A DNA stretch of 64,000 bases, taken from a virus (lineage: Duplodnaviria > Caudoviricetes). Shown piece by piece: positions 6,891 to 32,157 of this stretch. The first letter of the stretch is position 1. Each line of letters starts with the position of its first letter. The stretch is taken from the IMG/VR virus record IMGVR_UViG_3300031509_000001, positions 2,136 through 66,135 of that record; one strand, 5' to 3'. Made by a program: the position numbers and the translations under genes. The notes under the pieces were generated by a model that was given only the letters and a program-made list of their open reading frames with translations, was not told the DNA's origin and ran no database searches.

Positions 6891-7436
6891 ATGATGAACC
6901 GCGACACTACCGCTTCTACGACTCAACAACCAACAGTCGAGGAACCGCGGCCTGTAGAGGATGTGGCCCAGCAGCAGCAGCAGCAGCAGGCTGTGGCTGC
7001 AGTGCAAGGAGGGGACTATGGGAAGACACTTCTTCAGATGTTGGACATGTTCCCTCCGTGGCTTGTGATTACGCTGGCTAGGGACCTCAAGACGGGCCGC
7101 GCGCTTGCCTACAAGGAAATCAGCCACCGCAGTGGCGTCTGCATGCGGACCATTTGTCGCATGGCCCATGAGCGAACTTGGGCAGACCACTCGATTCAGG
7201 TTGTTTCTGCGGTTTTGAATGCCGCCGGCTTCAATCCCTCTACGTGGCCCGCGTGGAAGTCCTACATCCTAAACTCTGTGCGCCGCGAAAAGCCGTTCCG
7301 CTATTTGTCGCGGAAGAAGCGACGATTGAAGAAGTTGCTGGTTATGGTGGCAGCATCGCGCACTGCTGGTGGCGGTGCTGTACATGGCGGAGAGCAGGAA
7401 CGGGAAGGGCAGGTTGCAGAATCAGACGTTGATTGA
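6891..7436 (+). CDS. putative HTH DNA-binding protein
   Basis: 181 aa; LAYKEISHRSGVCMRTICRMA resembles an XRE-type helix-turn-helix; first gene after the promoter. Confidence 0.5.
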   Translation: MMNRDTTASTTQQPTVEEPRPVEDVAQQQQQQQAVAAVQGGDYGKTLLQMLDMFPPWLVITLARDLKTGRALAYKEISHRSGVCMRTICRMAHERTWADHSIQVVSAVLNAAGFNPSTWPAWKSYILNSVRREKPFRYLSRKKRRLKKLLVMVAASRTAGGGAVHGGEQEREGQVAESDVD

Positions 7437-7460
7437 TTGGGCATAAAGGGGGGGGCGCAT

Positions 7461-8297: not shown

Positions 8298-8341
8298 GCC
8301 CAGTACACTGATGTCCAGCAGTCATCTACAATATCCTGCCT

Positions 8342-9766: not shown

Positions 9767-10232
9767 CGCCAGGCTGATGCTGTCATCGCTGGAAGGCTTG
9801 CTGTCGCCGTGCTGTTTGTCTGAATGCGTTGGCGAACGCGTCATGGCTGCATCGATCTGGATGCCAGATGGGACATTTGCCAAGACAGACCAGTGGACCC
9901 GGTGTTTGCACTGCGGCATGTATCCGGCTCAGTTGATTGAGCCAGAATTTTGCAATGACGGGCTTTGTCGTTCTGTGATTCTAAAGGCACCGCGATTGTT
10001 TATGAACGATCCAGCGGTTATCCTTGCACGCAATGAGCCCGTGTTTACCAATGACACGCTCGAACGAGAAGAACAGGTGCGTCGGTACGGCTGGATTGTA
10101 CTGCCTGTCCCACTGGACCTGCTCTGCCTGGTGTGCCGCGCACTTCAAGCAGGGGATGTCCGGCACAAACGTTATCTGGTCTGCATTCCTAGCCGCCCTG
10201 GATTTTTTGGTGTTGTAGTGGAGCGTCTATGA
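9759..10232 (+). CDS. hypothetical Cys-rich protein
   Basis: ATG overlaps the dnaB end; CxxC pairs. Confidence 0.55.
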   Translation: MSDARLMLSSLEGLLSPCCLSECVGERVMAASIWMPDGTFAKTDQWTRCLHCGMYPAQLIEPEFCNDGLCRSVILKAPRLFMNDPAVILARNEPVFTNDTLEREEQVRRYGWIVLPVPLDLLCLVCRALQAGDVRHKRYLVCIPSRPGFFGVVVERL

Positions 10233-10627
10233 AAACCAAGCATCCAAAACCAACAGACCGATCCGTCACCTGCTTTGCCACCATGTGCTGCTGGCAAAGG
10301 GTTAACAACGACGAACTGGACCACGCTGCCGTCAAATGCGCGGTGTGTAATCGGCCAGCGGTTGTGATCGCGTTCCAAGCCACCCCACAGTTTGCTGACG
10401 CAATCTACGATGCGATTCGAGTCAACACACCCAAGGCAGCCCTGCGCATGCTCGGGCCTGGCTGGCGACAGATAACGCCCTGGCAATCCCTGGATCGTCA
10501 TCTGAACAGCATGGAGCGTCTGTGGTACGAGTACGGCGCTGATGCGTCTGCAGTTGTGCTTGCGCGCTACCTGACGAGCTTTGCTCTATTTGCAAGGCAG
10601 GTGGATTCGCAAGAGGAGGACGCTTGA
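10229..10627 (+). CDS. hypothetical protein
   Basis: ATGA overlap with the previous gene; CxxC motif. Confidence 0.6.
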   Translation: MKTKHPKPTDRSVTCFATMCCWQRVNNDELDHAAVKCAVCNRPAVVIAFQATPQFADAIYDAIRVNTPKAALRMLGPGWRQITPWQSLDRHLNSMERLWYEYGADASAVVLARYLTSFALFARQVDSQEEDA

Positions 10628-10704
10628 CGGGCAAGCGCCCATATGCTATGTATTGATTGGGTAGCGTCTAGGTACCCTCGGGAGACCCCTAAAGGCAGCC
10701 CACA

Positions 10705-10761
10705 AGGCGTGCCGCGCGATGGCGTGATGGCTCTCGGCGCGCGGCACGCCTCTCTCTTTTT
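10705..10761 (+). terminator. intrinsic terminator-like hairpin
   Basis: Perfect 14-bp stem AGGCGTGCCGCGCG / CGCGCGGCACGCCT followed by CTCTCTTTTT. Confidence 0.55.
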
Positions 10762-10875
10762 GCATCCACGACGCAAACATGACGTATCGTGCAATTTCGT
10801 GTTCGCAGCCGGGCCTTGTCCACGCAACTCGTTGCTATTCTTGGACTTCCAACCAAGCGGGGTGTACTTTTGTGC

Positions 10876-11706
10876 ATGAAGACACACGCGCGCGCATCGC
10901 AACGCGCAACGTCAACAACTAAAACGATTGTATGCGTAAGCGATCTGCATGTCGGGTCGAGGCTGGCTCTGTGCCCCAAGAAGCTGAGCCTGAAACAGGG
11001 GGGCGAGTAAAGCCCCTCAAGGGCTCAGCTTGCGCTGTATGAGGTTTGGGCCAAGCTGGCCGAACAATGGCGGAGGCCTGACATCTTGGTTTGTTGCGGC
11101 GATGCGATCGACGGACAAGGGACCAAAACGCGCGGGACAGAACAGTGGTCCACTGACCTGGAAGACCAGTTGTTCGCTGCTGCAGACCTGCTGCGGATGT
11201 TCAAGGCTGACAAGGTACTGCTGATCAACGGCACCGGCTATCACGTAGACGCAGGCGGTCGTCCCTTGGAATCTATCCTTGGCGAGCTTATCAGCGCTGA
11301 AGTTGTGGGGCCTTACGGCTCACGCAGCGCTGAGGAGATTTTCCTGCGCATCGGAGGCAAAACATTCCATTTTGCCCACCACATTGAGATTGGGAGCGGT
11401 TGGTACAAAACCACTCCTTTAGCCAGAGAGCTGGTCTTCGCATTATTGAATGAGACCAGCAAGCACCGCGTGGACGTCGTCCTACGAGGTCACGTCCACT
11501 ACTTTGTGGGCGTGGAGTTCAGTCGTCAGCGGGGTTACATCGTGCCCTGCTGGCAGATGCAGACCAGGTACATGATTCGGAGGGGCCCGTTCAGGATGGT
11601 GCCTGAATTTGGTGCTCTGCGTTTTGGCGTTAAGGATGGATCGATCAATGTCCAAAAGTTCATCTTCAAACTCGAAGAAACCAAGCCTCAAGTCATACAG
11701 CTCTGA
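10876..11706 (+). pseudogene. calcineurin-like metallophosphoesterase interrupted by an in-frame TAA (11008-11010)
   Basis: SDLHVG lies before the stop; CGDAIDG, GTGYH, FAHH and RGHVH follow in the same frame. Confidence 0.8.
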
Positions 11707-11995
11707 CATCACGCTGGAACGCGTGATTCGGCTGCTACGGCCTGATAAGCCTGTCTTGCCTCAGCGTAAATGCGCCCAGTGTCTTACGGGCCCGGAGTGG
11801 GCGGAGCTGTGGGGCATTGGGATCAACACCGCCAGGAAGATCATCCGACGTTTACTGGGCTTGCACTACTTGAAGCGCGGGATTAAGCGCGTGCATGCAA
11901 TCAATGGTATGCTTCTGACCGTGACGTGCTACGAGCCCACTAATCTTTTGCGGCGCTCGGCAAGTATCACCCAGAAGCAAAATGCCAAAGACTAG
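11648..11995 (+). CDS. winged-HTH-like protein
   Basis: LTGPEWAELWGIGINTARKIIRRLL...LKRG pattern; overlaps the end of the phosphoesterase gene. Confidence 0.6.
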   Translation: MSKSSSSNSKKPSLKSYSSDITLERVIRLLRPDKPVLPQRKCAQCLTGPEWAELWGIGINTARKIIRRLLGLHYLKRGIKRVHAINGMLLTVTCYEPTNLLRRSASITQKQNAKD

Positions 11996-12300
11996 GGCTT
12001 GGTCTTCTCTTTCTCTTCTGGGCGCTGGGTGGGGCCACCAGAGGACAGCATGCGGCGCGCGATGGCGTCCAGCGCGTCGTCTTCTGCCAGCGCGGCGATC
12101 GCTTTCACAAATTCCCACGTTTCCCTGGTCGGCTTGTAGTTTTGGCTCAAGTCCATGTGATAACGCATGACCAGTTTGGTTCTAACCTGCTCCCACGCCT
12201 CATCGGCTTCGGTAACAGCGCTGATCTTCCGCAGTACTCGCTGCACTTCGTCCGGGCTTTTGAAGCCTGCTGCTCGCAATGCGTTAGGGACTTTCGTCAT
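11992..12300 (-). CDS. hypothetical protein
   Basis: Last gene of the leftward operon; GGAGG upstream of the ATG. Confidence 0.6.
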   Translation of the reverse strand: MTKVPNALRAAGFKSPDEVQRVLRKISAVTEADEAWEQVRTKLVMRYHMDLSQNYKPTRETWEFVKAIAALAEDDALDAIARRMLSSGGPTQRPEEKEKTKP

Positions 12301-12517
12301 CCTGAATCACCTCCACCGTGATGTACGGGGCATCTCCGCCCCAGTGTTTGGTCAGTTCTCCAACCGATTCATACACCGGTAGAAAACCGACCGAACCATT
12401 CCGTCTTAGGTCATACTTGAGAGCTGTGATACCCGCCGGCCAGTCGACAATGACCGAGGACCATTTCATTATGAGCATGGGGATGTAGACTTTTTTGCCA
12501 GAAGTTTTCTTAGCCAT
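12284..12517 (-). CDS. hypothetical protein
   Basis: MAKKTSGKK start with GGAG RBS. Confidence 0.55.
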   Translation of the reverse strand: MAKKTSGKKVYIPMLIMKWSSVIVDWPAGITALKYDLRRNGSVGFLPVYESVGELTKHWGGDAPYITVEVIQDDESP

Positions 12518-19207: not shown

Positions 19208-20509
19208 TCACACTAGCAAATCGTCAATAAAGGTTCCCTGCTCTTCGTTCTTCGGAGCACGCTGTGTCTGCGGTTGTTGAACCGAAACCTTCGGTGCCTG
19301 CGAAGATGTGCTAGCTGCTAGGTTTTTCAGGCCTTCGATCGTAGACGCAGGATCACTTAACAGTGAGTCGAGCCTCGATTCTGGCCACTGCGAAAAATCA
19401 GCGCCCCAGCCGACCTTCTTGGCCGCTTCTGCTAAACCAGTACGGTCAAGCCCCATGGACTGTGCCACAGCCAAAAGCTTCTCAATTTTCTCCGATTTGC
19501 TTAACGGGCGGTCCATATTGGTCTGTTGAACCTGCTTCTGCTGCTGCGACACAGATTGATCAGCAGTGGCTGCAACATTGGCCTTGGCGGCGGCGCCCCT
19601 GGATCGACCACCGGTGGCCCGCGGCTGGCTTTGCTGTTGAGCGACCTTGGGTTCCGGGCCAGCAGGGGATTCCTGTGGCTCTTGCTTTGGCTGAGTGTGC
19701 GTCTCTTGCGACTCAGTTGCGTCAGCCTCCTCGGATACCTCAGTGGCAAACGCTTCCTCAACCGTCATCTCACCATCGCGAATAGCTGCATAAATCCCAC
19801 GCAGCGTGGACAATTGTGCAGGAGTTAGGTTGTCCAGCGATTGCGCCCCGACCACACGGCATGCCACAATCTCTGATACGCCAACACGCCGCAGCCAATC
19901 GCGGATGCCCGCAATGGCCTTTGGCGTTACAGGTTGCTGGCGCTCGATTGCTTGCATTACAGTGTTAACCACAGAACGAGGAATAACGCGAAGAATCGCG
20001 TTCCTCAGCGCCTTGGAAATGGCCACCTGCTGGTAAATGATGCGCAGACGATCGTGGAGCGGTTTTCCATGGCGATCAAGCGTGGGCACGATCACTTCCT
20101 CATTCCCCCACGCATTCGTCTGAACGTCCCAGGCAGAGCCTCGAGCGCGGATGTATTCCGGACGACTCTCAATGACCGTTGCCCACACACGCAGGTTGCC
20201 CCAGTTTTGCATGATAATTTCGGCAAGCCTAATAGAGGGCCCCTTGACCACCTTGGTTTCTCCGCTTTCGCGGTCCCGGTAGCGCAGAGTGTAAACCATG
20301 GACTCCGAATCCATCAGGGCCTCGGCCACAATGGCCTGCATGGCCTTCTGCCGATCGCGCGGATAGGCCTTGGCGGTGGCCACCTGCACGTCAACGGCAG
20401 CCTTCTCAAGGTAGGTCACGATTTCAGGCTGCTGCGCAACTGCGGCAGGCTGGGCCGACATGATTTCGACAGGGTCATCGACGGGTTGAATTTGGTACTG
20501 CTTGGTCAT
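19208..20509 (-). CDS. putative single-strand annealing / recombination protein
   Basis: VQVATAKAYPRD...GPSIRLAEIIMQNWGN motif of a phage family often annotated RecT-like; next to the exonuclease; low-complexity Q/P/A C-terminal half. Confidence 0.65.
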   Translation of the reverse strand: MTKQYQIQPVDDPVEIMSAQPAAVAQQPEIVTYLEKAAVDVQVATAKAYPRDRQKAMQAIVAEALMDSESMVYTLRYRDRESGETKVVKGPSIRLAEIIMQNWGNLRVWATVIESRPEYIRARGSAWDVQTNAWGNEEVIVPTLDRHGKPLHDRLRIIYQQVAISKALRNAILRVIPRSVVNTVMQAIERQQPVTPKAIAGIRDWLRRVGVSEIVACRVVGAQSLDNLTPAQLSTLRGIYAAIRDGEMTVEEAFATEVSEEADATESQETHTQPKQEPQESPAGPEPKVAQQQSQPRATGGRSRGAAAKANVAATADQSVSQQQKQVQQTNMDRPLSKSEKIEKLLAVAQSMGLDRTGLAEAAKKVGWGADFSQWPESRLDSLLSDPASTIEGLKNLAASTSSQAPKVSVQQPQTQRAPKNEEQGTFIDDLLV

Positions 20510-20578
20510 GGCTTTGTTTGTGTTTGTGGTTCCGTCTCTCAATCAGTCTTGCGCACCATCTTTCGCAAGACTGCCGCC

Positions 20579-20607
20579 TTTATACACGTGCGCGCACTTC
20601 TTGTCAA
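20579..20607 (-). promoter_or_regulatory. sigma70-type promoter of the leftward operon
   Basis: Minus strand TTGACA-N17-TATAAA; leader hairpin CAGTCTTGCG/CGCAAGACTG at 20544-20573. Confidence 0.75.
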
Positions 20608-21064
20608 CACCTGTTTTTGCGCTGTCAAGTGCCGAACGTTGCTAGTCAGCAACACGGGTCAAAAGTTGTTTTTATCGCCAAATTGGCACAAAACATGCTT
20701 GCAGTGGCTTGAAACCTCTGAGCGGTTGACAGCAAGCCGCAATTTGCGTGAGTATGCATCAGCGGCTGGCCAGGAGAAAAGATGCTGGCGGTTCGATCAG
20801 AGGCGTTACCGCAGACCGCGTGCGGGTGAACCCATGCGCAAGGCCGCCAGAAGCCGCGGAATCGCCCTGCCAGCCGCCTTAGTCCTCAAGGGGACACACC
20901 ATAGCCGACGCCAAAGAAAATCGATCCTAGGCCGTTTTAAAGCGATTGCAGGGGCATTCTGAATCTTGAGCCCGCCGCAACCACCAACAGCAGTGCGCCG
21001 TCGTACATGCCAAAGCCCAACCTTGCTAGTAAGCCCAACTTCGCAAAGCCTCGCACAAGACCCC

Positions 21065-21092
21065 TTGACAAGACAGAAGCAATGCCTATACT
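21065..21092 (+). promoter_or_regulatory. sigma70-type promoter of ncRNA copy A
   Basis: TTGACA-N16-TATACT with no credible ORF in the next ~900 nt. Confidence 0.75.
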
Positions 21093-21097
21093 GCCCC

Positions 21098-21625
21098 TCA
21101 GTCAGGCAGCAGACTGTGCCTGGTCAGATGACTCCGCGTCCGAGAGTTGATATCGGCGTTCTCAAGCACCAGCACAGTCGATCCGGTGTCCAACACCGGC
21201 CAGAGCGGTGAGTGCGGGGATAGCCCAACGCCGCTAGCCACTCTGCGGTTGCCAGACCAAGCCCGGAAGCGGGATGGCCATGCCGGGCAGCGTGGGCCGA
21301 AAGGTCAGAGCGCGGCTGGGAGAGGGTGGCGGCCCTCTGAGAGTCTGACCAACCGTGGACCCCGCCAGGACCCACGGGCTGCACGGTCCCCACGACCGTA
21401 GGGCGAGGCGAGGGGCCAGACGCGATCTGGGTATCCAAAGCCTGCCCTTGAGCAGCATACAGGCGAACCTTAGAGCCTAGTTCATAAAACCGCAGGCCCT
21501 AGGGGATGGGCCTATGCTGCCCAAGGGCGGGCTCAGGTACCTCCGCGATCTGGGCATCCTTAGTTTCAGAGTAGCCTACCTTGTAGATTAAGGAGCACGT
21601 AATTTAAGGAGTACGTAATTCAAGG
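21098..21625 (+). ncRNA. large structured ncRNA candidate, copy A (family not recognised)
   Basis: About ten hairpins plus sequence blocks and compensatory changes shared with copy B at 28415-29063; boundaries approximate. Confidence 0.7.
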
Positions 21626-22001
21626 AAGTCCTTGGAAATCCTCAAAGCTGAAGATCCATTCTTCTCAGTTGATCTCAACCCTGCTCAAAACTTTAGCATC
21701 AAGTCTAAGGGAATAAAACACAGGCGCCGGCTTAATCGCTGACTCACACGAACAAGCCGCAAGCGCACACAAAACAAGCTCTCTAGACTCAACGCATCGC
21801 AAGTGCAGAGAAAACACACGCTAGGCCGCAATCTTTTGATACCGCAATGCACAAGTCCAAGGGAAACACAAATTTTCACTCTACCCCGCAGGCTTGAACG
21901 TGGCTGGCGCGCGCTTAAACGCACGCAGTCATAATCCGACTGAAGGTTTTAGCCATCGCTGGCATAAACATTTGGCGCTATAGGGGCAAAAAGAAAGGCG
22001 C

Positions 22002-22030
22002 TTGACATTGCGCAACGCATTGCGTAAACT
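22002..22030 (+). promoter_or_regulatory. sigma70-type early promoter
   Basis: TTGACA-N17-TAAACT just upstream of ATG 22040. Confidence 0.7.
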
Positions 22031-22039
22031 TTATGCCGT

Positions 22040-23503
22040 ATGATGAATGCGCAAGAATTGATCAAGGCAGCATGGACAGCCAGGGCTCCATTAATCTGGC
22101 TTCAGGCACCAGACACATTAGAGGCGTTAGACTACACTGTTGCCGCCGTAACCAACGGCGCCAAACCACCAAAGACTTGGACGTGGTCGCCTGTCACAGG
22201 ATGGGACAAAGGCAGGAAGGAACCACCTTCTCTCAATCCAACTGATGCGATACTTGAGATTGCTGAAGCGCCACAGGAAAGGACACTCTACGTGGCCAAC
22301 CGCCTTGGTGAAGGCCTTCAAAATGATGTTCCCTTTGCCGCTGCGTGTCAGCTTGCCAGAAGGAAACTGGCCGCCGTAGGTTCAACGCTGGTGTTTGTGG
22401 TGCCAAGCGGCACCTTGCCGCCGCCTTCTATTGCCGCCGATTTCATCCAAGTTTCCCTGCCATTGCCTGACGACAATACATCTACACAATTGGCGCAAGC
22501 CGTTGTAAATGATTACTTTGCATCGTCTCAAATAGCCAAAGAGTCTGGGCTCCAACCCGACAAGATTGTTCAAAATCTAACGCCCTACCTGCGTGGATTA
22601 ACACGCTTTGGCGTTGAACAAGTTGCCGCCGTTGCCGCGGTTGCATCAGCAAGGTCAAAGCAAATCGATATGGCCGCGGCACAAATCGCCAGGGCTCAAA
22701 TGTTGGCTACCGCAGGGCTCCGTGTGATCCAGCCAGAGCCAGTTGAACTTCCTGGCTTGGAAGGATTGACCGACTGGATCAGCCGCTTTCCGGTTCAAGC
22801 GGTTGTATGGATGGACGAAATCGAGAAGGCCATTGCCGGCTATGGGCTTGCTGGAAGGGGCGACAGCTCCGGCGTTACGCAGGATCAGCTTTCCGTGATC
22901 CTAACGACAATGCAAGAGTACAGGATGTTCGGTCTAATCCTAGTCGGCCCACCAGGCACAGGCAAAAGTGAATCGGCGAAACAAGCCGGCCTACGCCTTG
23001 GCGTGCCAGTCGTGCAACTCGACCTTGGAAGTCTGAAGGGTTCATACGTAGGTGAATCCGAACAACGTGTCCGCAGAGCCATGGCCGCAATTGCTGGGCT
23101 TGGACGCGTGATGGTGATTGCAACGTCCAACGGGATTGATTCAGTCCCACCAGAATTAAGACGTAGGTTCGCTCTTGGAACCTGGTTTTGCGACTTGCCA
23201 GACACAATGGACCGCGCTAAAATCTGGGCTGTGTGGGGCTGGAAGTGCAAAATCGACGACAATTGGACCGACTTGGCCGCGGCTAGTGAAGGATACGCAG
23301 GTAGTGACATTGCAATGGCTTGCACCATCGCATCAGCCACAGGCCGCCCCATCCGTGAAGTGATGGAAAGAATCACGCCAGTCGGCGTTGTGGCCGCCGA
23401 ACTGCGTGCAAGACTTCAACAGGCCGCCGCAGGCCGTTGGCTTTCCGCTAAAACGGGCAAAGTTTGCCCGTTAACACCGCAAACAAGGAAATTCACCGAC
23501 TGA
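22040..23503 (+). CDS. Ycf46-like AAA+ ATPase with rearranged motif order
   Basis: VWMDEIEK, GDSSGV, GPPGTGKS, LDLGSLKGSYVGESE, IATSN, PPELRRRF, FCDLP, GYAGSDI. Confidence 0.9.
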   Translation: MMNAQELIKAAWTARAPLIWLQAPDTLEALDYTVAAVTNGAKPPKTWTWSPVTGWDKGRKEPPSLNPTDAILEIAEAPQERTLYVANRLGEGLQNDVPFAAACQLARRKLAAVGSTLVFVVPSGTLPPPSIAADFIQVSLPLPDDNTSTQLAQAVVNDYFASSQIAKESGLQPDKIVQNLTPYLRGLTRFGVEQVAAVAAVASARSKQIDMAAAQIARAQMLATAGLRVIQPEPVELPGLEGLTDWISRFPVQAVVWMDEIEKAIAGYGLAGRGDSSGVTQDQLSVILTTMQEYRMFGLILVGPPGTGKSESAKQAGLRLGVPVVQLDLGSLKGSYVGESEQRVRRAMAAIAGLGRVMVIATSNGIDSVPPELRRRFALGTWFCDLPDTMDRAKIWAVWGWKCKIDDNWTDLAAASEGYAGSDIAMACTIASATGRPIREVMERITPVGVVAAELRARLQQAAAGRWLSAKTGKVCPLTPQTRKFTD

Positions 23504-23522
23504 TCAATGGGGGAACGGAACC

Positions 23523-23804
23523 ATGCCTTGCTGGACAAGAATCGAGATTAAGCTTGCCCTTAAGTGGCCAGCTAAACACGTCACCGCCGCAGTTGCCCGC
23601 CTCAAGGGCTGGCAGAACAAAGGCGGAAAGTGGGTACATCAGGATGGGACTACGCTGAACGTTGACGGCGAAACCGCCACACTAGTCGGCGCCAATCCAA
23701 AGGCCCATGTCCGGTCAATCGCCACAGAAATTGTTCGGCAACAGGCCCTTAGGTACGGATGGAAGGTCCAGTCAACACCACAGGGATTGAGGATAACGAA
23801 ATGA
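23523..23804 (+). CDS. small protein, possibly DUF1257 (Ycf35)-like
   Basis: Follows the Ycf46-like ATPase; C-terminal IVRQQALRYGWKV fits the family pattern. Confidence 0.5.
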   Translation: MPCWTRIEIKLALKWPAKHVTAAVARLKGWQNKGGKWVHQDGTTLNVDGETATLVGANPKAHVRSIATEIVRQQALRYGWKVQSTPQGLRITK

Positions 23805-23983
23805 ATGCTACTAGGAAAAACCACCGTTGGACTTGGCTCCGCGTTGACAGCATTGGCACACACGTATGGCGTTGCCAGAAGTGCGGATTGGTCAAATACG
23901 TGGCCATTATCAAGAACCGCAGTGTCACGTGGTACAACGTTAACAACACCATTAGCCAGCAAAGGCCAAATTGCGTCTTATGA
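23801..23983 (+). CDS. small Zn-ribbon protein
   Basis: HRW...CQKCG...PNC; ATGA overlaps at both ends. Confidence 0.55.
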   Translation: MNATRKNHRWTWLRVDSIGTHVWRCQKCGLVKYVAIIKNRSVTWYNVNNTISQQRPNCVL

Positions 23984-24198
23984 AGAATACCATTGATATC
24001 ACAATCACCGAGGACGGGCGCGTCATCATCAGAACGTCGAGCATTGCATCGGCCGACCACCTTGCGGCCGAACGTATGCTAGCTGAACTACCAGCTTTGC
24101 TTGGTTCAGAGTCGGTACAACGGAGCCGATTGCCTAGCCAGGCACAACACCAACACCATCATCACCAACACCATGACCATGAGCACCACGAACACTGA
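23980..24198 (+). CDS. DUF2997-like small protein with His-rich tail
   Basis: IDITITEDGRVII...LPALLG; C-terminus HQHHHHQHHDHEHHEH. Confidence 0.55.
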   Translation: MKNTIDITITEDGRVIIRTSSIASADHLAAERMLAELPALLGSESVQRSRLPSQAQHQHHHHQHHDHEHHEH

Positions 24199-24202
24199 AA
24201 CC

Positions 24203-25069
24203 ATGACAAACACCATGACCACAACAAAAGCCCCTACGATCACGGTTCGGCCAGATACCGTCTGTGTCTCTGTGTCCGCAAGCGCTTGGTCCAGAATCCG
24301 CACCATTAACCATACCGCACTTGCGGATGCGCTTGCGGCTCAACGCGATACAGAGTTAATCCAAGGCCGTGTCTGTATCGCTAGATCAGCGACAATCGAC
24401 AAGATCGAAAGCTTGCTCCGCAACACGCGTGCTAACGCGTTGATGTACGCGGTTCGTGCCCCAACGCTAAGGCTCTACCTGGCCAAGGAAGGCGTTATCC
24501 CGCGTATCCAAGACATTGTCCAGCAAGGACTTGCGGAGTTGCGTGTCCTTCTTCAGGAACTTGCTGAAGAATGGCCTGCTATCGTCGATTCTGCACGCGC
24601 ACCAATCTCTGATGGCGGCCTTGGCGAACTGTTCCGGCCAGAATGGTACCCTACCAAAGATGAAATTGTCACTTCCTACGGCCTACGTATGGACGTCATC
24701 AAGGTCACCATGACCACAGACGTTCTCGAGAAGGTTGCCAAAGAGGCCAGAGATGAATTGCGCTCCGCTTTCGTTGCCCTAGTCCAAGGGCTGATCGAAC
24801 GGCTCGAAACCGGCCAACGTCTACGTTCAGACACGTTCGACGCGCTACGCCAGTTTGTGGCCACGTTCAACGCACGTGACGTAGTTGGGGATTCAGAGCT
24901 AGCGACTCTGGTTAACCAAGCCAAGGCCGCACTTCAAATTGTGCCTGCCAAAGTCTCTGGCAAGGACGTTGACATGCGCACTACCGTTGCCGGCTTGCTG
25001 AAAGCCGTTGAACAACAGGCCGTTAGCTTGGTCACGCCAGAACGTTCGTTCGGTAGCGATGACGAATAG
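24203..25069 (+). CDS. DUF3150-like early protein
   Basis: VSVSASAWS...LGELFRPEWYPTKDEI...F..FNARDVVGDSEL pattern. Confidence 0.55.
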   Translation: MTNTMTTTKAPTITVRPDTVCVSVSASAWSRIRTINHTALADALAAQRDTELIQGRVCIARSATIDKIESLLRNTRANALMYAVRAPTLRLYLAKEGVIPRIQDIVQQGLAELRVLLQELAEEWPAIVDSARAPISDGGLGELFRPEWYPTKDEIVTSYGLRMDVIKVTMTTDVLEKVAKEARDELRSAFVALVQGLIERLETGQRLRSDTFDALRQFVATFNARDVVGDSELATLVNQAKAALQIVPAKVSGKDVDMRTTVAGLLKAVEQQAVSLVTPERSFGSDDE

Positions 25070-25286
25070 CACCTTCAAATTCTTCTTGCGCGAAAAGAAC
25101 CGCGCCATTGCCGCTGGTCCAATAGCTACCTTGGACGTGTATGGCCACAACGGCAATCAACCGAAATACACCATTGTCGTACGCACCTACGGCGAAACCA
25201 TGTCCGTAGAGCTATGGCGTGGATTACACCGGCTGGCAATTGATAGTTCAAGCCTAGCTCCGTCACAGCCACAGCCAGCACACTAA
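25059..25286 (+). CDS. hypothetical early protein
   Basis: Overlaps the end of the previous gene. Confidence 0.5.
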   Translation: MTNSTFKFFLREKNRAIAAGPIATLDVYGHNGNQPKYTIVVRTYGETMSVELWRGLHRLAIDSSSLAPSQPQPAH

Positions 25287-25362
25287 ACCCTAACCAGCTC
25301 TGCGTTGAGCGTCCAATCCGTTAACGCAGAGCAACGCAGAGCGACATACACCACCAACACCT

Positions 25363-25611
25363 ATGAAAGCTTTTGTCTATTGCAAGATTATCGGTCCAGG
25401 CAATCAGGATGCGCGTTTAGTGTTAGCACGCGCCAAAGGCGGTTCCTGGGACTGGGTGGATATTGGCCAAAACCCAGAGAAATGGCTTGGTGTAAATGCT
25501 TCAACGCCAGGTGAAGCCGTAGACGCATTGATGGAAGCACTTTCAGCCGTAGCAGCGTCTATTGCGAACTTCCAGGCCAAATGCAAGAGCCAGGAAGCGC
25601 GCAACAATTGA
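25363..25611 (+). CDS. hypothetical early protein
   Basis: 82 aa ATG ORF with protein-like composition. Confidence 0.55.
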   Translation: MKAFVYCKIIGPGNQDARLVLARAKGGSWDWVDIGQNPEKWLGVNASTPGEAVDALMEALSAVAASIANFQAKCKSQEARNN

Positions 25612-25724
25612 CGCCTTCCATAGGCGCACCAAAGGAAAGTCTAGAGAATCTACACAACACCCGTCACGTCAACGCCAACATCAGCAGCCACAAGGCAAAC
25701 ACCTTGTGGCTGTTCGCTTTCCGC

Positions 25725-25752
25725 TTGCATTTTGTGCGCTGCGGTGCATAAT
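25725..25752 (+). promoter_or_regulatory. possible sigma70 promoter
   Basis: TTGCAT-N16-CATAAT; ATG at 25760. Confidence 0.45.
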
Positions 25753-25759
25753 GAGCGGC

Positions 25760-25984
25760 ATGAAAAGGACATACTACATCGAGGCATGGACCGATTGTGG
25801 AGATTCTGAAATCTTCCAGTGTGAAGAGAAAGCTGTGCGCTGGCTGGTCAAAATGACCAGACATGGCGGCAGTGGCTGGTGCCTAGTACATGAACACCCC
25901 TACATGGAAGACGATTGCGCTTGCGCGCAATACGTAGATGACTACAACCCGCAAGTGGTCAACGGAAAGATCAACCGCTATTGA
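25760..25984 (+). CDS. hypothetical early protein
   Basis: MKRTYYIEAW...HEH...CACAQY. Confidence 0.6.
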   Translation: MKRTYYIEAWTDCGDSEIFQCEEKAVRWLVKMTRHGGSGWCLVHEHPYMEDDCACAQYVDDYNPQVVNGKINRY

Positions 25985-26000
25985 AAGAGAAAGAAAGCAT

Positions 26001-26231
26001 ATGGCACGGCTCATCGCAGGCATCCAGGCGTGGAAAGGCGCCGGCAAGTCTGAAGTGACGCGCCTTGCTTCTCAAGAAGCCTCAGTCTGGCTCCGTGGCT
26101 GGCGTGGCGGCGTCACAGTGTGCGCTTTCTACGAGCCCCTAGGGAACATTAGGTTCAAGGTTTTCCGTGACCTTGGATCAACTTCACCAGGAAGTCGTTC
26201 CCTCATAGCGGAATTTGTCGTTCCGGAATAA
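26001..26231 (+). CDS. small conserved-looking phage protein
   Basis: MARLIAGIQ...VTRL...GWRGGVTV...FKVF..GS; purine-rich leader. Confidence 0.6.
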   Translation: MARLIAGIQAWKGAGKSEVTRLASQEASVWLRGWRGGVTVCAFYEPLGNIRFKVFRDLGSTSPGSRSLIAEFVVPE

Positions 26232-26306
26232 CTCCAACCCTTGCTGGCATTCTTCCCAGCCAGCCAGCAAGGGAAACCAACGGCTGGGAAAGAAAGGAAA
26301 GAAACC

Positions 26307-26693
26307 ATGAGTATGATGACTACTAGCATTGTTGGACGCTGGGCGGGCATCAAGTCTGCCGTTAAATCAGAAGCAACCCGCGTCTTGGAAGAATATTCCA
26401 GGGCAAAACGGCGGGCCCAAGCCATTTGTGGTCAAGACATTGCCACACTGGCTAGGCTATGTCTTGGCAGCAAGTGCAATGTTGCTGTGTTCATAGTCAA
26501 CGATGACCAACACAAGGCCGACATCGAGATTGAATTTCAGGAGCCATTTTACGGTGTCCGCGCCTTTCGGCCAGCCAGTGCCATCACACAGGAGCATTGG
26601 CCTGGGGAAATCGAGAGCTGGCAACAAGCCGTAGAGATCCTTAGGTCCACGGGTGAAGAGGAAATTCTTTCAGCCTGGGAACGCGAAACTTGA
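26307..26693 (+). CDS. hypothetical protein, paralog 1
   Basis: AAGGA RBS; aligns with 26982-27347. Confidence 0.75.
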   Translation: MSMMTTSIVGRWAGIKSAVKSEATRVLEEYSRAKRRAQAICGQDIATLARLCLGSKCNVAVFIVNDDQHKADIEIEFQEPFYGVRAFRPASAITQEHWPGEIESWQQAVEILRSTGEEEILSAWERET

Positions 26694-26720
26694 CGTTCCC
26701 AAACGCTAGCCTGTGTCCCG

Positions 26721-26754
26721 CCCCTAGGCCAAAAGCCTAGGGGATTTTGTTTTC
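26721..26754 (+). terminator. intrinsic terminator
   Basis: CCCCTAGGC-CAAAA-GCCTAGGGG followed by ATTTTGTTTT. Confidence 0.8.
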
Positions 26755-26868
26755 CGGAAAGCCAAGGGAAAAGAAAGGCCAGAGGAAAGCCAGAAAGCCA
26801 GTCCGCCAACCCGCCAACGCACCAGCCAACACCAACAGCGCGTTGTGCCTTCCACTTCATAAATCCGC

Positions 26869-26896
26869 TTGCGCGAAAACGCGGATTGTGTAGAAT
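26869..26896 (+). promoter_or_regulatory. possible sigma70 promoter of paralog 2
   Basis: TTGCGC-N16-TAGAAT. Confidence 0.5.
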
Positions 26897-26981
26897 AGGC
26901 ATCGCTGGCCTATGGTTGGCCAGTGGCTGCTACCTTCCGGTCGGGTGGCAGTGGGACAAAATGGCCGGGTTTGGAGGACAA

Positions 26982-27347
26982 ATGGGCGCATCTGTCCGCT
27001 GGGCGGCGCTTAAACGCGCCGTCCAGCAAGAGAGCGCCCGGGTCCTCTCAGAGTATGAGAGGGCCTGGGCGCGCGTCCTGGCCGAATGCGGCCAGGACAT
27101 CAGTCACAGGGTACCCCTGCCCCTGGGCAGGGGTGTCGCCCTATGGTATGAGCACGACGACGGCGGGTACAAACCCGCCGTCAAGGCCATTGTTGGGGGC
27201 GAGCCGCCCCTAACAATAGTCAAGTTGTCCCTGGCCGAACATTGGCCAGGGAGGCTTGCTGACTGGGAAGCCGTATTGGCTTCCCTTGTCTCCGTCACCG
27301 CCGAGACGATTGTCTCGGCGTGGGAACGGAAGGAGGAGGAGGCCTAG
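26982..27347 (+). CDS. hypothetical protein, paralog 2
   Basis: GGAGG RBS; shares RWA..K.AV..E..RVL.EY.RA, CGQDI, EHWPG and SAWER with paralog 1. Confidence 0.75.
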   Translation: MGASVRWAALKRAVQQESARVLSEYERAWARVLAECGQDISHRVPLPLGRGVALWYEHDDGGYKPAVKAIVGGEPPLTIVKLSLAEHWPGRLADWEAVLASLVSVTAETIVSAWERKEEEA

Positions 27348-27366
27348 GCCTCCTCCCCTCCATCAC

Positions 27367-27399
27367 ACCCCCAGGCGTTTGCCTGGGGGTTTTTGTTTT
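27367..27399 (+). terminator. intrinsic terminator
   Basis: ACCCCCAGGC-GTTT-GCCTGGGGGT followed by TTTTGTTTT. Confidence 0.85.
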
Positions 27400-27769
27400 C
27401 CCGGCGCCGCTTCCCTGGTCCGCCGATCTGCCTTTCCCTTATCTTGCCGGTCCGCGTCTGGTCCGCTGGTCCGGTCCGATCTTCTCGACCGTTTCGTTGC
27501 CGATCTTGGCGCCGATCTTGGCCTTTGGCCATGCTTTGGCCTTTGGCTTTGGCCAAGCTTCAAGCCATTTGCTGTTGCTGGACCTTGGACCTTTGGCCTT
27601 TTGGCCTTTTTGGTTTTGGTTTTTGGCTTTCGTTTTGTCGGTCGGCCGGCTCGACGGCTTGGCTGGCTGGACGCGCGCAGCGTGCGGGGGGGCGGGGTTT
27701 TGGCCGCGGGCAGGCGGCGGAGTGAGGGTAGTATACATCCCTTCTCGATCCGACGCCTTTCTGAGCTCT

Positions 27770-27872
27770 CGCGTTTAAGCTCGTTGTTGTCTTATGTTCT
27801 TCCCAATCTCTTGCGTTTCAACGTCTCTGACTGTCCGCGTTTAAGCCTTTCCCTCTGACATCGCGTTTAAGC
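27770..27872. repeat. three direct copies of CGCGTTTAAGC
   Basis: At 27770-27780, 27836-27846 and 27862-27872; inverted copies at 21913-21922 and 27008-27018. Confidence 0.8.
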
Positions 27873-28414
27873 AGGGCTGTTTGTTTAAGATGTTGCCTTT
27901 TGTGATGTTTGTGATGTGGCGAGGTTTTGTGTGAGCTCTGTGTTTTTCTATGCCTTACGTGTCGTTTTCGCGTTTATTTGACTTATAGGCGTGTTTGTTG
28001 AGGGAGGGCGCATGGAGGGTAGCGGGGCAGGTGAGAAAATCGATTGTAGGCGATTTTAGAGCGATTGTGAGGGTGTTTACGGTTAAGAGGTGAGAGGTGA
28101 GGTATGAGGTATGATGAGGTGTGAGTTCTGGTTGCTGTGTTGCTTCTTTCTTTCGTTGTGTGATGTTGTGTGATTGCGTTTTTGTGTGTGCGTTTTAGTT
28201 TTCGTTCTTTGTTCTGCGCGCGACTTTTTGAGGATTAAGCGACAACGAAGCGAAGTCTTCTCAAGCAATTGAGGCGTTTCTTGTACATTGTACGCCTCTC
28301 TTTCTTTTAACTACGAGCGTTGTTGTTTTCCTCTTTCAACGTTGTGTTGAACAAGGAGAGCCTCTTAGGTGTTGTAGTAAACGTAGCGTTTCTTTCAGTA
28401 GATGAGGTTCTATA

Positions 28415-29063
28415 TATACCTTTGAATTACGTACGTTCTTCCTCTTCCTCCTGCTTGCCGGGGCTACCTGAGCGATCCGAGGCTTTCCCCTTTAAGGCAG
28501 CATAGACCCAACCCCCAAGGGGCTTTGGAGAAGGTTTTGGTTCTTTTTTCTTCTCCTGCCCTTTAGGGTTGCGTCGTATGCTGCCTTGGAGGGGGGGTGG
28601 AGGGGGTTGTTTTGTTCTCCTCCTCCTCTTGCCGTACGCTCCGTCGCGTCCGGGTTTCCCCTTTGTTCCTGATTCCTTGGTTTTGGTTTTGGTTTCAGGA
28701 ACAAGAGCAGCCCGAGGGTGGGGAAGGTCCTCCTCGGTTGGCCAGACTATTGACGGTACACATTCCACCGTCCCTGACTGATGCCTTCTAGCCTTTCGAC
28801 CCTGGCCGTGTGATGTTGTGTCAGGTCCCCCTGCTATCACACATCGATGGATTGTAGCCGTGTCTGGTTAGCAGCGGTCGTGTCTTCGTTCTCGCATTCA
28901 CCAGACATGAGGGGCTGTTTGACCCTTTGGGGGGGAAGGCAAAACGCCTGCGCTTGGGCTCGGCGCTTGTCAAAGAACGCTGAACGCCGATATAACTCTC
29001 GGACGCGAAGTCAATCTCCGAGCCTCGCGCAACACGCACGTTGAGTGCGTGCTACAACCATCT
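28415..29063 (-). ncRNA. large structured ncRNA candidate, copy B (family not recognised)
   Basis: Homologous to copy A in the opposite orientation, with longer loops; boundaries approximate. Confidence 0.7.
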
Positions 29064-29070
29064 GAGGCGC

Positions 29071-29099
29071 ATTCTACGCACGTGTGGTGTTGGTGTCAA
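29071..29099 (-). promoter_or_regulatory. sigma70-type promoter of ncRNA copy B
   Basis: Minus strand TTGACA-N17-TAGAAT followed by GCGCCTCAG (copy A: GCCCCTCAG). Confidence 0.8.
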
Positions 29100-29397
29100 G
29101 AGGTGAATTTGCAGTTTTCTGCGATAACGTTAACGAGTGCGTTCTGTATTGATGTTTTTGTGATGTGATGTGATGTATCGCGTAGTGTATTTTCATCTTT
29201 CTGCTCTCACTCTGCTCTCAGTCACTCACGCAATTGACTCAACTCTTCACAGAAGGCCCTGAAACAAGGCGTTTTGATGGCAGGGGTGTGAATGCGGGTC
29301 AGTGATCAAACGCGCCTATAAGTCAAAATGTAACGTTAAAGTGGGGGTGTATAGAGAGGCCTCTGGTTCTTGGTTCTGGTTCTGCTTGTGATTTCCT

Positions 29398-30246
29398 TCA
29401 AGCCCTACGCTGCTGTACTGCGTTCCATGAACCGAGCCCTTGCAGTGCGTAGTAGCAGTTAGGGCAGACGTTGATGAGGGTTTGGTTTTGCCAGGGCAGA
29501 AGAGTAAGCTCTGTGATCCCTGTCCATCCGCAGAAGTAGCAGGAGGAGAAGATGTGAGTTCTGCCTTCGGCTGAGTACAGGGCTTTCGTATGCTCGTGAC
29601 AGAAGGGGCTGTGGTAGGTGATGCCCTTTTGCGGTTTGTACGAGGCAACAGGGGCGTGACAATCTGGCACAGCGCAGATTGTGCGCGTGAGCTTGATCCA
29701 GTTCCTGTGTCGTATTCTGCGTACGCTTTTGGAGACTGTAAAGGGTGTGGCGCTGATTTGCATGAAGGCAGCGTGAGGTAAATCCATCTCCTTATCCCAG
29801 GGGATGTCAAACGGTTTATGAATCGCTGGTGGGGGGCCAGCCTTGTTTTTGTGCTGCTGTGTGCGTTGAATTGCCTTGCGTCGCAGGAGGCTGTGATTGA
29901 TTCGTGCCAGAATTGAGAGGGACAGAATCAGGTGTGTGCCGGAATTTTCCGGAGAGGATAGAGCGACCAGAGCAGAATGCATGCACCAGCGTTTGGGGTT
30001 CGGTGCTTTTCGAAAGGCTCTGACTGCCTTGGCTGCGTATTGGCCTTTTCTTTGCAACGTATCGAACAAGATGTGAATCTTGTCTGCTGTAGCTGAGGCC
30101 ATTACGGACATGGCCATTCTCCAGCCTTCAGTGCTCTTGGGCGTGGTTTCCTGGGGGTTTTCCAGTCTTTGTTCAAGGCTGGAGTAGTAGGCGTCCAGCG
30201 TACTGGCAAGTGCATACTGGCGTCTTGATCGCATGTGTGCCACCAT
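29398..30246 (-). CDS. basic protein with C-terminal Zn finger and degenerate HNH-like module
   Basis: CAVPDC...FCHEH and CYFCG...VCPNCY. Confidence 0.55.
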   Translation of the reverse strand: MVAHMRSRRQYALASTLDAYYSSLEQRLENPQETTPKSTEGWRMAMSVMASATADKIHILFDTLQRKGQYAAKAVRAFRKAPNPKRWCMHSALVALSSPENSGTHLILSLSILARINHSLLRRKAIQRTQQHKNKAGPPPAIHKPFDIPWDKEMDLPHAAFMQISATPFTVSKSVRRIRHRNWIKLTRTICAVPDCHAPVASYKPQKGITYHSPFCHEHTKALYSAEGRTHIFSSCYFCGWTGITELTLLPWQNQTLINVCPNCYYALQGLGSWNAVQQRRA

Positions 30247-30309
30247 TAACTTGTGTGTGGACGATGAGATTTAACAAAGTTGATGCGTATCGCCTCGTAG
30301 AGAGATGTT

Positions 30310-32157
30310 ATGGCAGCAAGTAGAATTGCGCAACCGCGGAGGCGGTCACTCTTTTCGTCGCCTGGATCCTCGTGGTCGGCAGTGAGTCTCGGAGGTGCGC
30401 TGTTGGACACGCTCAGCGATCCGCCGAGGCCTGATGCGATTCGGTTTCGTTTGAACATGGAGCTTACCAGAGGGGGTGGAGAAGGGGCAGGTGGCCCTAT
30501 GGAGGTTCGCCCAAGGCAAGGTTTTATCCCCCTTTGGTTCAACGGGATTGGGGTTCCTGCGTACTGGGGTAAGGATGTAGACCTGCGGATTCAACAGCCT
30601 TCGGAGACGTTGCCACGGCTTGAATTGCGGTTGGTCAATGAATTTACGCGGAGTGATGGAGTTGGCCGGTTGTGGGCCTTTGGTGTGAAGCGAGTGGGGT
30701 ACGAATGGGGCGGGACTGGAGCGTGGGTGTTGAATGAGCCCGGATTAGACTGGAGGGCCCTGACGATGCCGTCCTCATGGCAGGGGCAGGGGTTTGACTG
30801 GGCTTACGGGTATGAGGTCCCACAAATTGCACAGATGCATGACAAGCTGATTTACGTAGCTTCGGGGACCAAGCCCTTTGCGATCGACATGCACACGTAT
30901 GCCCTGGAGAAAATACCGAGCCTTACCGAAGGTCAAGGAGGGCTCGATCCTGTCACCGAGGCCAAGGTTTGTCTGGCGCACAAGGGGATGATCCTGTTGA
31001 TGAACCTGCGCATGGGTGGGGTGGATTGCCCTACTCGCGTGGTCTGGTCGGACATTAACCGGTTATACTTTGGCTTGCAGGATTTGGATGGAGTGGCTCC
31101 TGTGACCGGCTGGCAGGACCTTGAATACGGGGATGAGATCGTGGCTGCAGGGGAGTTGCACGACCAGATTGTGATTTACACAAGACGCGCGATCTGGACG
31201 ATGCGTTTCCTGCCGACCACGAACAGTCTTTGGGCGTGGCGCAAGGTTTACGATGACAAGTCGGGCCGCTCAGGTTTGCCCGCGTATCGGTTTTCGCTGG
31301 TGTCAGATGGGCGCTTTCACTACTACGTGGGATATGACGGCATCTACAGGTTCAACCCGCTGATGACGCAGCCGGAACGAGAGGCATGGATCGATGCCGC
31401 ATCAGGCCTGATGTTCAAGCCTGACTCGAGACTGCGAATCAACCCGCTTGCACGGAATTCCGTTATCGGGGCTAAGGTGCCCACTACAGACGAGATCTGG
31501 TTCAGTTGGCTGAGCGCTGATGCAGGTGGGTGGACACTGTGTCTGAACATCCCCAAACAGTACGCTGATTACATGGACGTTGGCTGGCAAGCGCTGGGTG
31601 GGTTCCGTGCGTTCGGTAGAAATGAACCGATTCCGATCGGTGTTTTGTACGATGACAACACGATCAAGCATATTCAGGCCGGGTTTAGTCGTTATGTGTA
31701 TGAGATAACGCCGGAAGAGCGTCTGAGGCCGTTGTTGGGTAAACAGGTTGGCCCAAGTGGCTACCTTGTGTTGGCGTATGGGTTTGTTCCGGGGGCTGGT
31801 GGTGTGTCAAGGACACGTTTGACTGCTGTCCGTGCCGAGATGGGCCGGTTGAGCGGCGATGCTATTGGTCTGGGCCTCAGGACGACCTCGGCGGCCAGGT
31901 TGATCGATCCTAACCGACAACTGATGCGTCTGGCGGCTCCGGCGCCGCTACAGTTTCGAGACTGGGGCGTGGCGAGGGTTTATGCGACCAGCAACGACCA
32001 GGAGATTTTAACCTGGGCAACGCAGGAGGAGGGTGTTTACATCATCTGGGAACTTACCGTGGGTCACCCAAACGACACCAGTGCGCTTTCAGGGGGAAGC
32101 ATTTCACTGGGGCACCTGTTGTTTGAGATCGCGCCGGTTGGCGTTACTCCCTACTAG
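30310..32157 (+). CDS. tail tubular / head-closure beta-propeller protein (P22 gp10 / T7 gp12-like)
   Basis: 615 aa, beta-rich; RVVWSD, GDEIVAAGELHDQIVIYTRRAIW, YYVGYDGIYRF, DEIWFS. Confidence 0.65.
   Translation: MAASRIAQPRRRSLFSSPGSSWSAVSLGGALLDTLSDPPRPDAIRFRLNMELTRGGGEGAGGPMEVRPRQGFIPLWFNGIGVPAYWGKDVDLRIQQPSETLPRLELRLVNEFTRSDGVGRLWAFGVKRVGYEWGGTGAWVLNEPGLDWRALTMPSSWQGQGFDWAYGYEVPQIAQMHDKLIYVASGTKPFAIDMHTYALEKIPSLTEGQGGLDPVTEAKVCLAHKGMILLMNLRMGGVDCPTRVVWSDINRLYFGLQDLDGVAPVTGWQDLEYGDEIVAAGELHDQIVIYTRRAIWTMRFLPTTNSLWAWRKVYDDKSGRSGLPAYRFSLVSDGRFHYYVGYDGIYRFNPLMTQPEREAWIDAASGLMFKPDSRLRINPLARNSVIGAKVPTTDEIWFSWLSADAGGWTLCLNIPKQYADYMDVGWQALGGFRAFGRNEPIPIGVLYDDNTIKHIQAGFSRYVYEITPEERLRPLLGKQVGPSGYLVLAYGFVPGAGGVSRTRLTAVRAEMGRLSGDAIGLGLRTTSAARLIDPNRQLMRLAAPAPLQFRDWGVARVYATSNDQEILTWATQEEGVYIIWELTVGHPNDTSALSGGSISLGHLLFEIAPVGVTPY

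Follow-up and report, generated by a model that had tools for sequence, protein, structure and literature searches.

The lambdoid phage HK022 carries putL and putR, diverged paralogous cis-acting RNAs, one behind each early promoter, which fold on the nascent transcript. A layout of this kind is present in the virus record IMGVR_UViG_3300031509_000001 (Caudoviricetes); the window analyzed here, a stretch of 64,000 nucleotides (nt), comprises bases 2136-66135 of this linear 66,135-base-pair (bp) IMG/VR record (CheckV 88%). It holds two copies of one element, copy A (21098-21625, plus strand, about 530 nt) and copy B (28415-29066, minus strand, about 650 nt), both of the long form. Judged by comparison of their sequences, A and B are real, promoter-linked, structured non-coding RNAs of an uncatalogued family that occurs in many unrelated phages. 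As in put, to which they are likened by description only, one diverged copy lies behind each promoter, and A and B are followed by termination-prone untranslated RNA. The put RNAs, however, are about 70 nt long, consist of two stem-loops and diverge, whereas A and B measure 530-650 nt, are pseudoknotted and converge. The compact members of the family also differ from put in lying deep within operons, two of them just behind terminators.

ColE1 RNA II is likewise a promoter-linked, folded non-coding transcript, of about 550 nt, and the likeness extends to the surroundings, the RNA family being often near replication genes and RNase H. Unlike ColE1, no RNA I-like promoter-like site was detected on the opposite strand by a consensus scan of 21098-21625 and 28415-29066, the two copies converge, and the phage encodes its initiator and helicase elsewhere. 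Riboswitches and protein-binding leaders share with the family a 5' untranslated place, a conserved junction, competing helices and complementarity between the tail and the ribosome-binding region; here, by contrast, the downstream genes are heterogeneous, and A and B are far larger and lie hundreds of nt from the next open reading frame (ORF). The RNAs known as GOLLD, ROOL, OLE, HEARO and raiA resemble A and B as long multi-helix RNAs with conserved junctions, often of phages or prophages, but differ in that A and B have no Rfam match, another architecture and, across the family, a consistent place just upstream of a gene.

The identity with a known RNA was examined with Rfam 15 (4227 models) at gathering scores and then in E-value mode. 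Over the whole window there were no matches at the gathering score, and E-value mode returned only microRNA-type matches that fell far short of threshold, such as mir-28 at 26.4 bits (gathering score 64) and MIR9486 at 26.6 bits (gathering score 100); the archaeal RNase P model reached 8.7 bits against a gathering score of 84. The loci of 18 relatives yielded one transfer RNA and nothing else, and five loci gave nothing at E <= 1. ROOL, GOLLD, OLE, HEARO, raiA, RNase P, transfer-messenger RNA, signal recognition particle RNA and group I/II introns were rejected as identities, as none gave an Rfam match. The first-pass annotation of the window, made by eye, had seen no hallmarks of RNase P, transfer-messenger RNA, signal recognition particle RNA or group I/II introns here but had kept a reservation about ROOL, GOLLD, OLE and HEARO, which the scan removes. 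No published description of the RNA family was found; the more than 10,000 candidates in the supplements of PMC10690425 may include it, while the passages of that article examined here mention no motif upstream of replication initiators.

Each copy begins behind a near-consensus sigma70 promoter that matches 11 of 12 consensus positions, on the strand that had been proposed for it: TTGACA-16-TATACT at 21065-21092 (plus) for A, and TTGACA-17-TAGAAT at 29099-29071 (minus) for B. In a consensus scan of 20500-30500 these are the two best of nine sigma70-like sites, against a mean of 4.4 in shuffled sequence. Directly after the promoters stand GCCCCTCAG in A and GCGCCTCAG in B. The 5' end of A was placed from its -10 hexamer and its 3' end at the last block common to both copies; B has the same order of elements. 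All the blocks and helix arms listed earlier were recovered at their positions and strands, the shared blocks are collinear in a MAFFT alignment, and the helices between them differ in sequence yet still pair. Both copies fold far better than shuffled sequence: A at -245.1 kcal/mol (minimum free energy z-score -4.30; none of 100 shuffles folds as well) and B at -260.7 kcal/mol (z-score -6.96; none of 20 shuffles).

The absence of a credible or conserved reading frame also holds up. All six frames of the central domain of B contain stops, the gaps of the A-B alignment are 2, 7, 6 and 1 nt long, and a 137-amino-acid ORF in B (28427-28840, minus) is of low complexity and without a counterpart in A (best tblastn match E 0.066); by these three observations a protein-coding reading of A and B is rejected. 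The window, also searched with filters off, and the complete 66,135-bp record yielded no third copy. In the structure-aligned core the identity of A and B is only 55%, and either of them is 47-65% identical to foreign members; a 5' domain and the 3' blocks are common to A and B alone. A and B are an old, diverged pair rather than the product of a recent duplication.

Relatives of the two copies are hard to reach by primary sequence. Patterns from a 35-nt block of the 5' domain and from the pair AGUCUGRCC...CGGGCUGC matched nothing in IMG/VR and, in metagenomes, only two near-identical strain contigs. Close DNA relatives of A, B or locus L100, a provirus member, were not found among cultured and deposited phages; locus L099 gave a single 66-nt DNA match among deposited phages, to MW202713.1. 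Another route used the AAA+ ATPase gene next to A, for which 71 homologues of the protein were collected and 80 IMG/VR loci obtained via alignment. In one of these, L059, a permissive blastn search gave a 94-nt match that represents a third copy; it has diverged strongly, has a promoter-like site of its own and keeps all the central helices, each of them altered in sequence. A covariance model of the central domain, R1 (158 positions, 25 pairs), was seeded with A, B and L059; on 83 sources (the window, the 80 ATPase loci and two further loci) it found only these three, A with 147.5 bits at 21230-21383 and B with 146.6 bits at 28875-28706, both scores being high by construction for seeds. Two weak R1 matches were rejected, L019 as lying within a coding region and L028 as an unrelated repeat array; the latter locus has, at 6100-6400, intergenic repeats with AACAAGTAGCC and GAAACCCGAAG upstream of a small ORF.

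A search pattern was then drawn from the positions common to A, B and L059 with the covarying positions left free; it fixed CGAAAGG, AGA and AGUCUG, so that the invariance of those letters among its hits is partly ascertained. It matched 34 IMG/VR loci, 25 of which were confirmed by R1 at 35.7-141.8 bits (E <= 6.6e-7), the next best scoring 16.1 bits. The family is defined by collinear central helices P3, Px, P5 and P6 together with the conserved junction GCGUGGG(U)(G)CGAAAGG and AGUCUGRCC, and the helices are kept in all members found by R1. The GenBank record MW202713.1 (L126) holds a further member (R1 56.7 bits; 2443-2596 of the locus, about 2664-2817 of the record, minus strand). It sits within a coding sequence deposited as 'hypothetical protein' (UOF80929.1), after which come a 71-amino-acid ORF and an 'antitermination protein'; here the public annotation misreads RNA as protein. 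Among 185,579 species genomes, two of four pattern matches are members, one in Achromobacter sp. and one in Methylomicrobium sp., with 62.3 and 42.9 bits.

The 28 aligned cores fall into 15 clusters, or lineages, at 85% identity. Six other records searched whole, three of them at least 95% complete, have one copy each, and this phage has the only double copy among the seven records so searched. A link to the AAA+ ATPase gene was rejected: the RNA occurs in one of the 80 ATPase loci (L059) and in none of 50 whole records with the same ATPase (L007-L056); the same tool recovered the RNA in 6/6 records known to hold it.

Covariation among homologues, by which the call of a non-coding RNA had been proposed to stand or fall, is strong in the central helices. 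P3 lies at 21261-21266/21283-21288 in A and 28842-28836/28814-28808 in B, Px at 21303-21309/21344-21350 and 28793-28787/28746-28740, P5, nested in Px, at 21321-21326/21333-21338 and 28772-28767/28757-28752, and P6 at 21353-21358/21372-21377 and 28737-28732/28717-28712. In the MAFFT alignment of A, B and L059 these four helices are 96.0% paired, against 80.4 +/- 3.1% after shuffling (0/500 shuffles reach this), and 11 of 25 pairs have changed on both sides. Among 27 distinct sequences, 95.2% of the cells are paired against 73.0 +/- 1.0% (again 0/500), 19 of the 25 pairs show both-side changes, and the covariation score is 0.595 vs 0.162; when the partners are slid by 1-3 columns as a control, pairing drops to 30-44%. 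The alignment of 27 sequences was made by R1, which favors structure, a bias that the three-sequence MAFFT result does not have. P3, P5 and P6 each show compensatory change in 6/6 pairs.

Px, formed by GGYYAGA with UCUGRCC, is 100% paired in the 27 sequences; one of its pairs that the search pattern left free is C-G in 24, U-A in two and A-U in one, which makes three Watson-Crick types, and another is U-G in 24 of 27. Because G-U pairs are frequent, the fold can be assigned to the strand that is read by the promoters and the neighboring genes. With compensatory change in 15 lineages and strand-specific G-U pairs, the earlier view that an RNA fold with conserved unpaired nucleotides is under selection is borne out, with two corrections. 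The AGUCUGRCC block, taken as unpaired, contains UCUGRCC, the 3' strand of the covarying Px. The GGCC-GAAA-GGTC hairpin, taken as a covarying helix, has no pair changed on both sides, and 500/500 shuffles do as well. This hairpin can form in 92.6% of cells, and its 3' arm uses the same nucleotides as Px; from the alignment, either Px is the real helix or the two would alternate.

A pseudoknot-forming contact between the loops of P1 and P3 co-varies as well: CCGCU/AGCGG in A, CUGCU/AGCAG in B, CGGUU/AGCCG in L059, CGGUU/AACCG in most compact members and CGGUG/CACCG in L102. Taken together over 24 distinct further members, P1, P3 and the loop-loop contact are 85.1% paired, against 71.0% after shuffling (0/500 shuffles reach this), in a test where MAFFT aligned the distant members poorly. 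In all 15 representatives that were read, P6 is followed by a GCGAC-like sequence, a 3' hairpin bears UAGGGG...CU(C/A)UGCC, and the tail is pyrimidine-rich; the version of the 3' motif in B (28519-28500), read by eye, is UUGGGGG. Between A and its counterpart in the strain variant L006 there are 7 differences over 530 positions, of which two lie in helices and keep pairing (T21249 to C, which turns G-U into G-C in P1, and C-G into U-G in P3). Over its first 760 nt (22040-22800), the neighboring ATPase gene shows about 6% difference between L006 and this phage. Over the 940-nt non-coding unit, seven of eight differences between L006 and the window fall in 21242-21406, the central 165 nt of A, with no differences in the 5' domain, in the 3' domain or over most of the spacer.

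Outside the central helices, the 5' domain of A is enclosed by P1 (21105-21110/21248-21253, GGCAGC/GTTGCC), which has a covarying counterpart in the compact members; in B, P1 is TTGTAGC/GCTACAA at 29057-29051/28858-28852. The P1 loop is enlarged in A and B by about 120-190 nt, the insert including P2 (21112-21119/21172-21179 in A, 29024-29018/28963-28957 in B) and the 35-nt block (A 21126-21160, B 29017-28983), of which 33 of 35 positions are identical between the copies. Just 5' of this block, at 21122-21128, A has a second GGUCAGA equal to the 5' arm of its Px, which could compete for UCUGACC and has no equivalent in B. The domain further contains a hairpin (21183-21199), a block (21207-21220) and the segment 21229-21240 with the CCGCU that pairs with the P3 loop AGCGG (21268-21272), and B has an extra hairpin at 29050-29034. 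The conserved junction of A lies at 21290-21302 between P3 and Px, and P6 is followed by GCUGC (21378-21382) and by P7, which is ACGGUC/GACCGU at 21383-21388/21394-21399 in A and UCUUGUUCCUGA/UCAGGAACAAAG in B (28706-28695/28672-28661). The 3' domain of A (21416-21623) comprises a small hairpin with loop CGCGA (block 21416-21425), the long hairpin P8 (21452-21459/21513-21520; in B 28584-28577/28504-28497), which bears the UAGGGG...CUAUGC motif at 21499-21517, and the 3' blocks GCUCAGGUA (21531-21539) and GUACGUAAUUCAA (21611-21623; in B 28434-28422).

The compact members of the family have an RNA of about 250-300 nt and lie within an operon. In 15 of 15 representatives whose flanks were read, the RNA is oriented as the next gene, and in 13 compact representatives the conserved 3' motif ends about 60-150 nt before the start codon (read by eye). 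The downstream genes are mixed, with replication genes in several lineages and unrelated or unknown genes in others. For instance, a prophage-like group with contigs of about 35-42 kb encodes a CI-like repressor, a CII-like activator, two small ORFs, the RNA and a 157-amino-acid protein, followed by a Q-like antiterminator, an HNH endonuclease and terminase. The 157-amino-acid protein covers only the C-terminal part of an initiator profile (phrog_270 positions 167-294 of 383); in the 286-amino-acid initiator of this phage, residues 144-224 align with it (E 6e-6). A different truncated initiator follows the RNA in L102 (phrog_16167 positions 181-274 of 315). In both L099 and L104 the RNA is followed by an RNase H gene (phrog_531 E 2.6e-6 and 1.3e-4), for which the Pfam RNase_H matches (E 2e-4 and 3e-4) are both below cut-off. 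In L100 (provirus G006, about 7000-12500) the truncated initiator is the sole replication-type gene among the nine ORFs tested between repressor and terminase, where no helicase, loader or primase was seen; loci L108 and L114 are similar to L100.

A universal pairing of the RNA with phrog_270 was rejected, as the profile is absent from 5/5 other RNA-bearing records; the phrog_270 model also matches in 13 of 14 control genomes. A split-gene (intron) origin of the headless initiators is not supported either, the ORF upstream of the RNA being unlike the N-terminal half of this phage's initiator in what is a weak protein test, and the lack of a match to group I/II intron models also speaks against it. 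The tail of the RNA shows complementarity, read by eye, to the start region of the next gene: GCUCCUC with GAGGAGC in L099, CUUCCUCC with GGAGGAAG in L104 and, for the compact prophage group, (C/U)CACC with GGUG-type sites.

In this phage, copy A has on one side a leftward operon for replication and recombination (clamp, exonuclease, RusA) and on the other a rightward unit that consists of a 414-nt spacer, a promoter-like site, the AAA+ ATPase gene and small unnamed ORFs and ends at plus-strand terminators at 26721-26743 and 27367-27390. The spacer after A (21626-22039, plus) is ORF-poor and A/C-rich on its sense strand (C 27%, G 21%), with one difference in 414 nt from L006. The second promoter-like site (22002-22030, plus; TTGACA-17-TAAACT, 10/12) lies 9 nt before the ATPase ATG at 22040 and would give a leaderless or nearly leaderless ATPase messenger RNA. 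The spacer after B (27739-28414, minus) has 676 nt without a credible ORF and is C-rich, G-poor and repeat-rich; at spacer positions 180-500 it has 25-36 C and 3-10 G per 80 nt (about 40% C, 6% G), and three exact GCTTAAACGCG occur at 27770-27872. It is followed, in minus sense, by an ORF for a basic, low-complexity protein of 99 amino acids rich in lysine, alanine and proline (27439-27738). Read in minus sense, 27400-28414 forms about 1 kb of repeats, with the three GCTTAAACGCG, tandem GCCGATCTTGGC, two GTTGTGTGAT and AAGGCCAAAGG-type repeats. A C-rich, G-poor composition is that of Rho loading sites, and 27400-28414 may be a Rho loading site, an origin-like region or both. Between each copy and the ORFs that follow it, no intrinsic-terminator-like site was found on the strand of that copy. 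Far from both copies, and 13 kb from A, are a full-length phrog_270 initiator (7437-8297, profile positions 17-267 of 383) and a DnaB-type helicase (8342-9766; phrog_19, E 2.6e-97); this phage thus has its own initiator, unlike the compact RNA-bearing prophages.

The reading given most weight here, tentatively and with a probability of about 0.4, is that the RNA is a cis-acting leader which gates downstream expression. Host RNA polymerase would transcribe A and B from their own sigma70-type promoters, as the consensus matches suggest, and the two copies would form the 5' parts of two convergent transcription units. The RNA would fold co-transcriptionally and decide whether polymerase and ribosomes proceed into the genes behind it. 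In compact members the pyrimidine-rich 3' tail would pair with the ribosome-binding region of the next gene, while behind A and B termination, probably Rho-dependent, would be allowed or prevented in the C-rich, G-poor untranslated spacers. A leader is suggested because the RNA is co-oriented with the next gene and usually abuts it, because the tails are complementary to start regions, and because two competing helices, the GAAA hairpin and Px, are both possible in most members. It is further suggested because each of the two transcription units keeps its own diverged copy, and because A and B precede untranslated RNA of Rho-loading composition without an intrinsic terminator. Two diverged, fully compensated copies would also fit a position-tied job better than a diffusible RNA.

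Several observations weigh against a leader. The next credible ORFs are 414 nt (A) and 676 nt (B) away, and because of these spacers and the ATPase's own promoter-like site at 22002-22030, A and B could be separate RNA genes. The downstream genes differ (truncated initiators, RNase H, AAA+ ATPase, unnamed ORFs), so that no single regulated function or ligand is suggested. L099 and L104 have an intrinsic terminator about 25 nt upstream of the RNA and no promoter was seen there, the pairings of tail and ribosome site are short (4-8 bp), and a length of 250-650 nt with many invariant junction nucleotides is more typical of ribozymes and ribonucleoprotein RNAs.

A rival reading is a stand-alone, trans-acting structured RNA, that is, a ribozyme, ribonucleoprotein scaffold or host-factor decoy, which would be made at once from strong early promoters in this phage and cut from operon transcripts in compact members. 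Such an RNA is a possibility with somewhat long odds, and the near-consensus promoters of A and B, their long ORF-free spacers and the separate promoter-like site before the ATPase gene all agree with it. So do the junction nucleotides, highly conserved over 15 lineages while the neighbor genes vary, the size and pseudoknotted architecture reminiscent of large orphan RNAs, and the scattered distribution (0/50 whole records with the same ATPase), which suggests a portable module. Compact members, however, show no evident promoter or terminator of their own and are always just upstream of a co-oriented gene; a diffusible RNA would not be expected to occur in one genome as two copies with only 55% identity, and no protein gene is common to all members, phrog_270 included. 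It is very improbable, on the other hand, that the element acts as anything but RNA, be it a DNA-level repeat such as a protein-binding or recombination site, a single-stranded DNA fold, a decayed or overlooked gene, or chance. The 35-nt block, so well kept amid divergence, could be a DNA-binding site or a product of gene conversion, and ORFs of 84-137 amino acids overlap both copies; but compensatory changes keep the helices in 15 lineages, the frequent G-U pairs would correspond to A-C mismatches in the complementary strand, there is no conserved frame and the core of B is closed in all six, and the folded strand is the one read by promoters and neighbor genes.

The gene content of the compact prophages brings up a replication-origin RNA, either an R-loop or primer like ColE1 RNA II or an origin mark for initiators without their DNA-binding half. 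The transcript would fold, stay on or mark its template and replace the missing half of the headless initiators, with RNase H processing in some phages, and the ATPase and small-gene block would be flanked by A and B as a pair of RNA-defined origins. In compact prophages, the gene that follows the RNA covers only the C-terminal part of initiator profiles, no helicase or primase is present among the nine ORFs tested in L100, and an RNase H gene adjoins the RNA in L099 and L104. The iteron-like GCTTAAACGCG occurs five times in the window against 1.18 expected, four of them sense-oriented downstream of A or B, but this count is weak, being reached by 2 of 100 shuffles; cumulative GC skew over the window reaches its minimum near 26 kb, between A and B, but the skew of phage genomes also follows the direction of transcription. 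RNA-based initiation of replication is nonetheless unlikely, given that this phage has a full-length initiator and a DnaB-type helicase 13 kb from A and that A and B converge, so that primers extended along transcription would copy only the 7 kb between them. Neither RNA has an antisense promoter-like site inside, the five other RNA-bearing records are without phrog_270, and the ORF upstream of the RNA does not resemble an initiator N-terminal half.

The two diverged copies of this phage, away from its initiator gene, separate the RNA from the idea of headless initiators and point to a position-tied job. A and B are of the long form and, having near-consensus promoters of their own, are easy to express and probe; for experiments in a culturable host there is the Achromobacter prophage member. 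A family model would correct public records such as MW202713.1. As a pseudoknotted RNA of 250-650 nt, present in at least 15 phage lineages and not in Rfam, the family is a candidate for new RNA biochemistry or phage gene control.

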